Of a stretch of 64,000 bases of DNA, positions 21,953-24,900 are shown piece by piece. The stretch covers positions 321,178 to 385,177 of the forward strand of contig JACRHL010000003.1 in NCBI GenBank assembly GCA_016212085.1. The letters run 5' to 3'. Origin of the DNA: Nitrospirota bacterium. Its GTDB lineage: Bacteria > Nitrospirota > JACRHL01. Each line of letters opens with the position of its first letter. Positions within the stretch are counted from its first letter, which is position 1. The notes under the pieces were generated by a model. That model worked only from the letters and a program-made list of their open reading frames with translations. It did not search any database and was not told the origin of the DNA. The position numbers and the translations under genes were made by a program.

Positions 21953-24900
21953 ATGCACCACGCCCCGTTCGTGCACCTTCGCTGTCATACCGAGTACAGC
22001 CTGCTCAAGTGCACCAACCGCATCGATGCGCTGGTGGCCAAGGCGGCGGAATACCGCCTGCCGGCGCTGGCGCTCACCGACATGGGCAACCTGTTCGGGG
22101 CGGTACAGTTCTACCAGACGGCGGTGGCGGCGGGCATCAAGCCGATCCTGGGCGCCCAGGTGAACGTGGCGCCGGACAGCCGCTGCATACGCCCCGGCGG
22201 CGCCCCGGAGGACACCCCGGAGATGCTGCTGCTGTGCCGCGACGCCCGCGGCTGGCGCAACCTGATGGAGCTGCTCTCCGCCGCGCACCTGGAATCCATG
22301 CACGACCACACCCCCCTGGTGGACCGGGAGCTGCTGGAACGGCACGCGGACGGGCTGATCTGCCTCACCGGCGCCCTGAACGGCGTCATCCCGCGCCTGC
22401 TGGAGGGTGGCCACCCCACCGCCGCGCAGGACACCCTGGCCTGGCTCAAGGCCGCCTACGGCGCCGACAACGTGTTCGTGGAGCTGGCCGACAACGGCAT
22501 GGCCGGACGGCGCGGCCTGAACCTAGACCTCATCAACCTGGCGCACGCCACCCACACCCCCCTGGTGGCCACCGCCGACTGCTTCTACCTGACCCCGGAC
22601 GACGCCCGCGCCCACGACGCCCTGCTGTGCATCGGCTCCGGCGCCATGATGGACGAGACCGACCGCCGCCGCCTGCCCGCCGGCCAGTTCCACTTCCGTG
22701 CGCCGGACGAGATGGCCGCCGCCTTCGCCGACCTGCCGGACGCGCTGGAGAACACCGTCCGCATCGCCCAGCGCTGCAACCTGGACCTGCGCTTCGACAC
22801 CCCCTACATGCCCGCCTTCCCGGTCCCCGGCGGCATGCCCCCGGAACGCTACCTGGAGGAACAGGTGTTCGCAGGGCTGGCCCGGCGCTTCACCGAGCAG
22901 GGCATCCCCGAGGAGGCCCGCCCAACCTACACCGAGCGCGCCCGCTGGGAGCTGGACACCATCAACAAGATGGGCTACCCCGGCTACTTCCTGATCGTGT
23001 GGGACATCATCCGCCATGCCCGCGAGCAGGGCATCCCGGTGGGGCCGGGGCGCGGTTCGGCGGCGGGCTCATTGGTGGCCTACGCCCTGCGCATCACCGA
23101 CCTGGACCCGCTCCCCTACAACCTGCTGTTCGAGCGCTTCCTGAACCCGGAGCGCGTGTCGCTGCCCGACATCGACATGGACTTCTGCATGGACCACCGC
23201 GACCGGGTGATCCACTACGTGGCCGACAAGTACGGCAGCGACCACGTGTGCCAGATCATCACCTTCGGCACCATGGGCGCCAAGGCGGTGCTGCGCGACG
23301 TGGCGCGGGTGCTCGACTTCTCGTTCTCCGAGAGCGACCGCATCGCCAAGCTGGTGCCAAACACCCTGGGCATGACCCTGGACAAGGCCATGCAGGAGGA
23401 GCCGCGCCTCAAGGAGCTGGTGCGGTCCGACGCGCGGGTGGGCGAGCTGATGGACATCGCCCTGGCCCTGGAGGGGGTGGCGCGCCACGCCTCCACCCAC
23501 GCCGCCGGCGTGATCATCTCCGAGGACGTGCTGACCCGCTTCACCCCCCTCTACCGCGGCCCCAACAACGAGGTGATCTCCCACTTCGCCAAGGACGACG
23601 CCGAGGCGGCGGGCCTGGTCAAGTTCGACTTCCTGGGCCTCAAGACCCTCACCGTCATCGACCACGCCGTCAAGGAGGTCCGGCGCGCCGGCGGCAACCT
23701 CGACCTGGACGCGGTCACCCACACCGGCATCACCCGGAACGATCCCAAGACCTACGAACTGCTGTGCCGGGGCGACACCACCGGCGTGTTCCAGCTCGAG
23801 TCGTCGGGCATGAAGGACCTGATCGTCAAGATGCAGCCGGGCACCTTCGAGGACCTGGTGGCGCTTTTGGCCCTGTACCGCCCCGGCCCCATCGGCTCGG
23901 GCATGCTGGACGACTTCATCAACCGCAAGAAGGGCACCACGCCCATCACCTACGACCTCCCGGAGCTGGAGCCGATCCTCAAGGAGACCTACGGCGTCAT
24001 CGTCTACCAGGAGCAGGTGATGCGCATCGCCAACGTGGTGGCGGGCTACTCCCTGGGCGATGCCGACCTGCTGCGCCGCGCCATGGGCAAGAAGAAGGCC
24101 TCGGAGATGGAGAAGCAGAAGGCGCGCTTCATCGTCGGCGCCACCGCCAAGGGGCACGACCCCAAGGTGGCGGAGCGCATCTTCGACCTGATGGCCTACT
24201 TCGCGGGGTACGGCTTCAACAAGTCGCACTCCGCGGCCTATGCGGTGGTGTCGTTCCAGACCGCCTACCTGAAGGCCCACCACCCGGTGGAGTTCATGGC
24301 GGCCCTGCTCACCAACGACATGACCAACCCGGACAAGACGGCGAAGAACATCGCCGAGGTGCGGGAGATGAAGATCCCCCTCCTGCCGCCGGACATCAAC
24401 CATAGCGGCATCCGCTTCACCTGCGAGGCGGCGCCGCCGGACAGCCAAAGGTACCCACTGGGGGGCACCTCTATTGACCGTCGCGAGCGGTCCGAGTGCA
24501 AGGCGGACGGAGCGCAGGACCCGAGACATGTCCAGTGGATGGGAGAGGGGCCGAGCACCGCCCAACGCAGCAATCGGGGCGCGCAGCAGGTTGATAGAGG
24601 GCACCTGGGCATCCGCTACGGCCTGGGCGGCATCAAGGGGGTGGGCGAGGCGGCCCTGGAATCCGTCGTCGCCCAGCGTACCCGGGCCCCCTACACGGGC
24701 CTGGCCGACCTGTGCCAGCGCATCGACCTGAACAAGTCCAACAAGCGCGTGCTGGAGGCCCTCATCCACGCGGGCGCCCTGGACGCCTTCGGCCCCCGCG
24801 CCGCCCTGTCCGCCGCCCTGCCCGAGGCCATGGAGGCGGGCTCACGCGGCGCGCGCGAGCGCGAGTCGGGGCAGTTCTCCATCTTCGGCGCCGAGGCGGC

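Follow-up and report, generated by a model that had tools for sequence, protein, structure and literature searches.

Analysis of a 64,000-nucleotide stretch from the genome of a Nitrospirota bacterium (contig JACRHL010000003.1, hereafter the window) revealed that its dnaE gene, coding for the alpha subunit of DNA polymerase III, has been entered by a 143-bp MITE (miniature inverted-repeat transposable element), which together with its 4-bp target-site duplication (TSD) adds 49 codons to the gene without interrupting the reading frame. The additional residues fall in a loop of the protein and are missing from its orthologues. Judged from its ends and its duplication, the element is a MITE of the IS5 type. 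We consider it probable that this MITE, mobilised in trans, inserted in frame in the chromosomal dnaE and is carried there as a tolerated passenger. The host had been taken for a high-GC proteobacterium in the original prediction, which was wrong: the dnaE product is deposited as MBI5136034.1 of a Nitrospirota metagenome-assembled genome (MAG), and by protein comparison the closest named relatives of this uncultured organism are Nitrospirota/Leptospirillia. That the gene is essential, as the prediction had it, and that it is functional are assumptions.

The dnaE open reading frame (ORF) spans positions 21914-25579 of the + strand (1221 codons in the ORF list and its translation) and contains no stop codon or frameshift over this interval, element included. 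The NCBI gene call starts at 21953 and gives a product of 1208 amino acids (aa), annotated as 'MAG: Nitrospirae bacterium' and encoded on a 448-kb contig; the ORF product, P0001, is identical to it (100%). P0001 carries the complete DnaE domain set in Pfam (PHP, DNA_pol3_alpha, finger, HHH_6 and OB). Searches of PDB with phmmer aligned it end to end with the Escherichia coli alpha subunit 5FKU (E 5e-274) and also recovered the Thermus aquaticus structures 2HPI/3E0D (E 1e-252). The alignment with E. coli has one large break only, DnaE 17-832 corresponding to E. coli 4-820 and DnaE 900-1215 to E. coli 831-1152. Both catalytic motifs, PDIDMDF and KFDFLGL, are conserved and fall in the aligned parts.

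The element occupies positions 24463-24605 of the + strand, as delimited by BLAST to six other copies of its family (family B), by alignment and by folding, and it forms a foldback over its whole length. It is flanked by TGGG at 24459-24462 and again at 24606-24609, a duplication recognised from the sequence, from comparison of the flanks and from reconstruction of the empty site. The left terminal inverted repeat (TIR), GGGCACCTCTATTGACC (24463-24479, + strand), follows the TIR pattern of the family with 0 mismatches; the right TIR, GGTTGATAGAGGGCACC (24589-24605, + strand), was placed by alignment, and its last 7 nt are GGGCACC, not GGTGCCC. Copy family, TIRs and TSD all agree with the 143-bp element and TGGG duplication that had been proposed. 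The added DNA amounts to 143 + 4 = 147 bp, or 49 codons (24461-24607, + strand; DnaE residues 850-898 in the 1221-aa numbering and 837-885 in the NCBI numbering), which are open in the dnaE frame and give the translation ...PPDSQRYPL-GGTSIDRRERSECKADGAQDPRHVQWMGEGPSTAQRSNRGAQQVDRGH-LGIRYGLGGIKGVGE.... The dnaE ORF survived because 147 bp were added and the element is free of stops in the frame in which it landed.

The right TIR of the dnaE copy escapes a scan with the TIR pattern even at 3 mismatches. Three adjacent substitutions have made its terminal 7 nt (24599-24605) a direct, not inverted, copy of the left end, and an 8-nt direct repeat, GGGCACCT, is found at both ends (compare 24463-24470). 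The GGGCACC change is not required for the open frame. Such an altered right terminus would probably block transposase cleavage at that end and thereby freeze the dnaE copy in place. The dnaE copy folds at -65.4 kcal/mol (z -3.5) and the intact family B copies at -80 to -86 kcal/mol (z near -7 to -9.5), as one long imperfect hairpin.

Alignment with DnaE orthologues revealed that exactly these 49 residues are missing from them and that the orthologue DNA corresponds to the empty site. The closest orthologues, P0002 (77% identity, 1160 aa) and P0003 (75%, 1159 aa), are shorter by 48-49 aa and are followed by a group at 67-70% identity. The 49-residue segment is missing in P0002-P0011 and in all 119 of the other homologues listed. 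At the P0002 locus the DNA of the empty site reads TACCGGCTGGCCATCCGCTACGG; the window sequence, after removal of the element and one TGGG, reads TACCCACTGGGCATCCGCTACGG and encodes QRYPLGIRYG.

The position of the insert in the protein, just upstream of the GIRYGLGGIKGVGE block, was confirmed by the E. coli alignment and by the translation. The insert falls between the PPDIN...FTCE strand and the strand and helix-hairpin-helix (HhH) motif of GIRYGLGGIKGVGE, equivalent to residues 820-831 of E. coli and 881-887 of T. aquaticus. It directly precedes the HhH DNA-binding module, and the internal clamp-binding motif follows about 85 residues further on. An AlphaFold2 model of residues 560-1221, made with an 86-sequence alignment, had a mean predicted local distance difference test (pLDDT) of 87.4 and a predicted template modelling score of 0.83. 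Apart from the first ~10 residues of the fragment, pLDDT is below 50 only at fragment positions 291-334 (residues 850-893), and the strands at fragment positions 277-280 and 339-342 bracket the insert. A structure search with the model returned polymerase III alpha subunits as best matches (2HPI, 4IQJ, 3E0D and 5FKV, E 1e-34 to 4e-39). As modelled, the insert lies at the tip of a beta-hairpin, in the loop between the end of the fingers and the HhH module.

Among 102 homologues, the loop that separates the PD[IV]N anchor from the IR[YF]G anchor measures 12 aa in 69 and 16-27 aa in 31; in P0007 it has 42 aa, and in the protein described here 70 aa. The hairpin loop is naturally variable in length, since it ranges from 12 to 42 residues among the 101 other homologues. 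The 42-residue loop of P0007 is rich in Pro, Lys and Ala and is not MITE-like, and intein domains are present in another DnaE homologue, P0120 (1609 aa); together they indicate that insertions of several kinds are tolerated by the DnaE proteins of this group. The insert peptide is strongly hydrophilic (grand average of hydropathicity -1.44, isoelectric point 8.2). Most likely, as far as the model tells, the polymerase would fold and work with the additional residues as an extra surface loop.

BLAST of the element against the window revealed six further family B copies (E 1e-39 to 1e-21), seven in total. A 143-bp copy at 21659-21801 (- strand, TSD ACCA, TGGT on the + strand) is intergenic, 112 bp upstream of the dnaE ORF; another of 143 bp, with degenerate ends, lies at 29135-29277 (- strand) immediately 5' of queC. 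The copy at 34282-34446 (+ strand, 165 bp) has an internal insertion of 21-22 nt, that at 39437-39581 (+ strand, 145 bp) has the TSD ACAT and was defined by BLAST, flanks and TIR pattern, and a degenerate one of 133 bp is found at 44977-45109 (- strand) 5' of a cytochrome c-like ORF. The best-preserved copy, with perfect 17-bp TIRs, the TSD CTCA and a folding energy of -85.6 kcal/mol, is located at 48323-48465 (+ strand, 143 bp) upstream of a merB-like gene. All six copies outside dnaE are intergenic, several of them just 5' of genes (queC, the merB-like gene and the cytochrome c-like ORF). A length of exactly 143 bp is shared by the dnaE copy and three of the other six; perfect 4-bp TSDs are likewise found in four of the seven (dnaE TGGG, 21659 ACCA, 39437 ACAT, 48323 CTCA), which are a different set.

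Alignment of the copies gave a family B consensus whose ends form a perfect 17-bp inverted repeat, GGGCACCTCTATTAACC / GGTTAATAGAGGTGCCC. The window contains 9 occurrences of the TIR pattern, where shuffled sequences lead one to expect 0.54; none of 100 shuffles reached 9. The dnaE copy shares 87% identity with the best-matching other copy in the window (BLAST). In keeping with a MITE the element is small, 143 bp, and the peptide it encodes has no match in Pfam or NCBIfam. The copy adjacent to queC (29135-29277) has no stop in the element frame that the dnaE insert uses and reads in phase with queC, the Pfam QueC domain beginning directly after the element; a longest-ORF call would therefore add a MITE-derived N-terminal extension to QueC.

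The ends of family B were compared with a collection of 100,044 species genomes. The TIR scan gave over 120 matches, many of which lie in MAGs of Nitrospirota, a match being judged on the first 18 nt (the TIR and the following G) under a degenerate pattern. Perfect 4-bp TSDs were present in 21 of the 45 short elements (132-188 bp) with these TIR ends among the loci fetched. Three loci, in the Nitrospira MAGs L015 and L019 and in the Bacteroidetes MAG L012, carry long elements of 1243-1297 bp with the same ends. In the two long elements examined, those of L015 and L012, the single ORF codes for a DDE transposase of the IS5 family, with matches to NCBIfam NF033581 (E 1.5e-80 and 2.6e-85) and to Pfam DDE_Tnp_1 and DUF772. 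The assignment of the dnaE element to the IS5 type follows from the match of its 17-bp TIR to these 1.3-kb IS5-family elements and from the 4-bp duplications, which are typical of them.

The interior of the MITE was also considered as a derivative of an insertion sequence (IS) with the same ends, and this was rejected, the sequence in common being the first 18 nt only. The terminal 18 nt, GGGCACCTCTAAAAACCG, head many different short foldback families (113-190 bp, some of 37-52 bp; L002-L121) in Nitrospirales, Clostridia, Spirochaetaceae, Opitutales, Bacteroidetes and one low-GC MAG with dozens of copies. On comparison of these ends and interiors, one IS5-type end has given rise to many unrelated MITE interiors.

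Whether the insert has been adapted to the polymerase was approached through its divergence and codon usage. The dnaE copy is 88.8% identical to the class consensus, the intergenic copies being 70-94% identical, and it has three private substitutions, two of which fall in the right TIR. The G+C content at third codon positions (GC3) is 0.755 in the insert vs 0.965 in the remainder of dnaE, which argues that the insert has not been moulded like host coding sequence. The codon bias of dnaE without the insert is extreme, and several ORFs of 300-680 codons overlap dnaE and its neighbours, long spurious ORFs in other frames and on the other strand being common in such a genome. The family B consensus is free of stops in the frame of the dnaE insert and in two frames of the opposite strand; with an addition of 147 bp, an ORF would stay open in about half of the cases if members of this subfamily inserted into genes at random. 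The possibility that the differences from the consensus were needed to open the frame was rejected, since the consensus is already stop-free and most of the differences are common to other copies. A promoter and terminator scan of 24300-24800 gave no signal, so the insert is unlikely to start or terminate transcription within dnaE.

The course of events that we propose is as follows. A non-autonomous 143-bp IS5-type MITE, presumably mobilised in trans by an IS5-family transposase, inserted into the chromosomal dnaE of a Nitrospirota bacterium and duplicated TGGG. The frame was kept because the addition is 147 bp long with no stop in the landing frame, and the 49 hydrophilic residues, predicted to be disordered, are probably tolerated at the length-variable tip of the hairpin. 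The insert is most likely a neutral or slightly deleterious passenger, not an adaptation, and its mutated right terminus probably immobilises it.

Several observations weigh against this explanation. A left-junction scan of the JGI metagenomes, which catches filled and empty alleles, gave 0 matches, and P0001 is represented by one member on one contig in a collection of 15 billion proteins, that is, by a single metagenome-assembled contig. The window contains no transposase with these TIRs, and for this reason the mobilising partner in the host genome is a presumed one. A YTAR-type target is usual for the IS5 group; the TSDs in the window, TGGG, CTCA, ACCA and ACAT, deviate from it. In genomes of lower GC content, elements with the same ends are found at T/A-rich sites (TTAA, TTAT and TTTA, for example), and the class C elements described below are flanked by CTAG, TTAG or TTAA. 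A hairpin of -65 kcal/mol within an essential mRNA could carry a cost. Moreover, the view is limited to 64 kb of the genome, and a second dnaE or a polC could lie elsewhere.

An assembly or binning artefact, or a minority allele in a population whose dominant members have an uninterrupted dnaE, would account for the isolation of the record: the MAG was built from short reads, the element is one of a family of multi-copy repeats, and with one contig and one protein record no independent sequence of the filled or the empty allele was found. We regard this as unlikely, since the perfect 4-bp TSD and an empty site that matches the orthologue to the base are the signature of transposition, and repeats usually break assemblies rather than create in-frame inserts with TSDs. 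The contig passes seven diverged copies unbroken, and the dnaE copy is identical to none of the others in the window (87% at best) and so is no duplicate of one of these joined in by mistake. There is a smaller chance, which we consider slim, that the insert has disabled this dnaE, as a young pseudogene or crippled allele, and that replication depends on a polymerase gene elsewhere; the insert stands directly before the HhH module and close to the internal clamp-binding motif, and the visible genome is 64 kb. Yet 3.6 kb without a frameshift or stop, with conserved catalytic motifs, a GC3 of 0.965 kept in the rest of the gene and an insertion site in the most length-variable loop of the region, do not resemble a decaying gene, and polC is not known from Nitrospirota. 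Directly 3' of dnaE lies accA (25621-26574, + strand; Pfam ACCA, E 2e-143), and the orthologous locus of P0002 (L001) likewise has the order dnaE-ACCA, with QueC close by. As this adjacency recurs, the window dnaE is taken as the canonical locus and not a paralogue.

Exaptation, by which the 49-residue loop would now function in the polymerase, for instance in a new contact with protein or DNA, has a slimmer chance still. In its favour would be an allele fixed, should this be confirmed, in an essential gene and a right terminus altered in a way that would prevent excision, and a related insert in ybeY, described below, uses the identical element frame. However, the lipB insert uses another frame, the three private substitutions include two in the terminus rather than the body, the codon composition is unameliorated (GC3 0.755 vs 0.965), and the segment is predicted to be disordered and is missing in all 119 other homologues listed. 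Removal of the segment before or after translation, by an intein, an intron-like element or translational bypass, is hardly credible even though DnaE genes host inteins, as in P0120 and in the dnaE of Thiomargarita (PMC4853749). The 49 residues match no Hint, intein or other domain of Pfam or NCBIfam, the junctions, L|GGTS...RGH|L, lack the Cys/Ser start and the His-Asn-Cys/Ser/Thr end, and Rfam, self-splicing introns included, gave no match; bypass is unnecessary because the frame is open.

Approximately 80 copies were checked for ORFs spanning the element, and one more was found inside a real gene, lipB, at positions 1010-1159 of L139 (JAANCK010228419.1). The lipB insert comprises 150 bp including the duplication, lies in an element frame that differs from that of the dnaE insert, and is located two residues before the catalytic-lysine motif AKIAALG (Pfam LplA-B_cat, E 4e-32). 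Residues 2-121 of the L139 LipB correspond to 19-136 of the Mycobacterium tuberculosis LipB (1W66), and residues 171-238 to 140-208. A third case was found in ybeY, at about 1546-1700 of L176 (Ga0268298_10020655), whose product P0136 (202 aa) carries the peptide between AAFKIG and LVVRLVDEQES in the context phoH-ybeY-lnt. The identical P0136 occurs on 12 contigs of independent assemblies (JGI and Logan), which indicates that the ybeY allele is real and stable in populations. The genic share is one of seven copies in the window and 3 of about 80-100 examined; given the lipB and ybeY cases, in-frame survival in housekeeping genes is rare but recurrent for the superfamily.

An exhaustive search of 1.84 billion cluster representatives, made in HMMER with the 49-aa peptide as query, returned 22 matches, all of 42-236 aa, with P0136 among them. 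A word-indexed protein search with the same peptide returned one 80-aa ORF only and missed DnaE itself; since the DnaE that holds the exact peptide was not returned, this negative is weak and the method unreliable for short internal segments.

The inner core of the dnaE element (24498-24573, + strand), as delimited by metagenome scan and alignment, is shared by element classes with different ends. The scan of metagenomes with the inner part of the element yielded 54 loci (L122-L175). Between the window class (B) and class C, the inner ~75 nt, TGCAAGGCGCACGGAGCGCAG.ACCCGAGACATATC-loop-GATAGGCGAGGG.GCGAGCACCGCGCAACGCAGCA, are 81-86% identical, part of this conservation being imposed by the search pattern while the conserved blocks that flank it are independent of the pattern; the outer 30 nt, TIRs included, show 45-50% identity. 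Alternative ends with the same core include CAGGCTGTTGAAAAACG, with the flanks CTAG/TTAG/TTAA, and several others, so that at least 3-4 unrelated end types occur. Conversely, a Troglogloeales (Nitrospirota) MAG found via the TIR has the same ends and sub-apical blocks with a different apex. The contigs that bear the core have GC contents of 49-74%. On the L165 contig the leucyl-tRNA synthetase is 82-86% identical to Nitrosomonadales/Gallionellaceae proteins, and from this the core spans more than one phylum; BLASTP of the class C contigs against named loci was uninformative for taxon assignment.

Analysis with RNAalifold revealed compensatory changes at 26 of 32 pairs, those at the TIRs being trivial. 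Covariation in the inner stem, e.g. AU 31 / GC 30 at one pair and GC 39 / AU 17 / CG 3 at another, indicates that the hairpin is maintained, and many of the conserved core bases are unpaired. No match to Rfam 15 was found in the window at the gathering threshold. With E up to 10 and two element copies, the class C copy had none and the other a spurious plant miRNA hairpin (22.9 against a threshold of 90 bits), by which the element is not a described RNA family. A scan of IMG/VR for the core gave 0 matches and thus provides no evidence for carriage by phages, and string searches of the literature for the TIRs and the core found none. It is conceivable, although we hold it to be rather unlikely, that the core, which occurs in Nitrospirota as well as in Nitrosomonadales-type Betaproteobacteria, functions as a structured module of RNA or single-stranded DNA, has repeatedly gained different IS5-type ends and, by its stop-poor, hydrophilic coding potential, is able to colonise essential genes such as dnaE, lipB and ybeY. 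In that event it would be a free-living counterpart of the palindromic elements of Rickettsia, and a selected function would be implied.

A second MITE family (family A), with the ends CAGnCTGTTGAAAAAG and the flanks CTAG/ATAG, was identified in the window at 18168-18300, 21218-21350, 21347-21389, 38594-38640 and 50108-50150; its ends resemble the class C ends found with the core in metagenomes. The 840 bp upstream of dnaE contain one full and one partial family A copy and one family B copy. Just 3' of accA, at 26651-26750, there are three tandem 30-bp units (TCCGCCGGCAGCCTGCCGGACAATTCCCTGCCCGACGGCA-like).

The target of the insertion is the catalytic subunit of the replicase, among the most conserved and dosage-sensitive proteins of a bacterium, and the insertion pinpoints a permissive site in polymerase III alpha, the hairpin before the HhH module, with a possible use for tagging or domain insertion. 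Together, dnaE, lipB and ybeY point to a widespread MITE superfamily that occasionally survives in housekeeping genes and is a source of new protein loops. For annotation, unexplained 49-residue inserts in MAG gene calls can be genuine, and many of the spurious short 'proteins' in databases are seeded by peptides derived from MITEs, as with the 22 HMMER matches of 42-236 aa.

Among known systems, MITEs derived from the IS5 family are an established class in bacteria (reviewed in PMC10969869 and PMC3184786). The element described here is likewise small, multicopy and without an ORF of its own, has IS5-matching TIRs and a 4-bp TSD, folds into a hairpin over its whole length and is mostly intergenic, often just 5' of genes. 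It differs in that its interior is no deletion derivative of an IS, in that one interior is combined with at least 3-4 unrelated types of end and in that the TSDs are not YTAR. QMITE1 and QMITE2 of Coxiella burnetii provide terminal or internal peptides, e.g. the C-terminal 33 aa of EnhC (PMC5896051), and share with the present elements the overlap or extension of ORFs in frame, sometimes in mid-ORF. The Coxiella cases mostly extend the termini or fall within hypothetical proteins, whereas the insertion here is internal to a large, universally conserved enzyme.

Inteins are about 130 aa or longer, carry a Hint domain and remove themselves by splicing. Those reported in the dnaE of Thiomargarita (PMC4853749) resemble the present case as insertions derived from mobile elements that leave the dnaE frame intact; the insert here has neither a Hint domain nor splice-junction residues and presumably stays in the protein. 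Literature searches on dnaE, MITEs and insertion in frame brought up no account of a dnaE that contains a MITE.

The NCBIfam collection includes domain models of the Rickettsia palindromic elements (RPEs). No model of the collection was matched by the three in-frame peptides at E up to 10, nor did the dnaE peptide match Pfam, a comparison at the level of peptide models only. The parallel with RPEs drawn in the original prediction is therefore apt as an analogy and fails as a membership: besides the lack of a Pfam or NCBIfam match, the elements here are IS5-type MITEs. Fusion of a MITE ORF with a host gene in frame has been called 'not unusual', RPEs being the extreme case (PMC10969869), and nearly half of the RPEs are genic (Ogata et al. 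2000, 2002, as summarised in PMC10969869). Since related elements lie in frame in lipB and ybeY, the dnaE case resembles them: in both systems palindromic mobile elements of about 150 bp occur in frame in unrelated housekeeping genes and add a hydrophilic peptide where the fold allows for it. On the contrary, the hosts here are free-living Nitrospirota and Betaproteobacteria rather than the obligate intracellular Rickettsia, the elements have clear IS5-type TIRs and 4-bp TSDs, and genic copies are the exception. Colonisation of genes in frame by palindromic elements, best known from the reduced genomes of Rickettsia, is thus found in a free-living, high-GC environmental lineage, and the dnaE insert is a fresh example of a known phenomenon rather than a system of a new kind; it behaves as an RPE does without being one.

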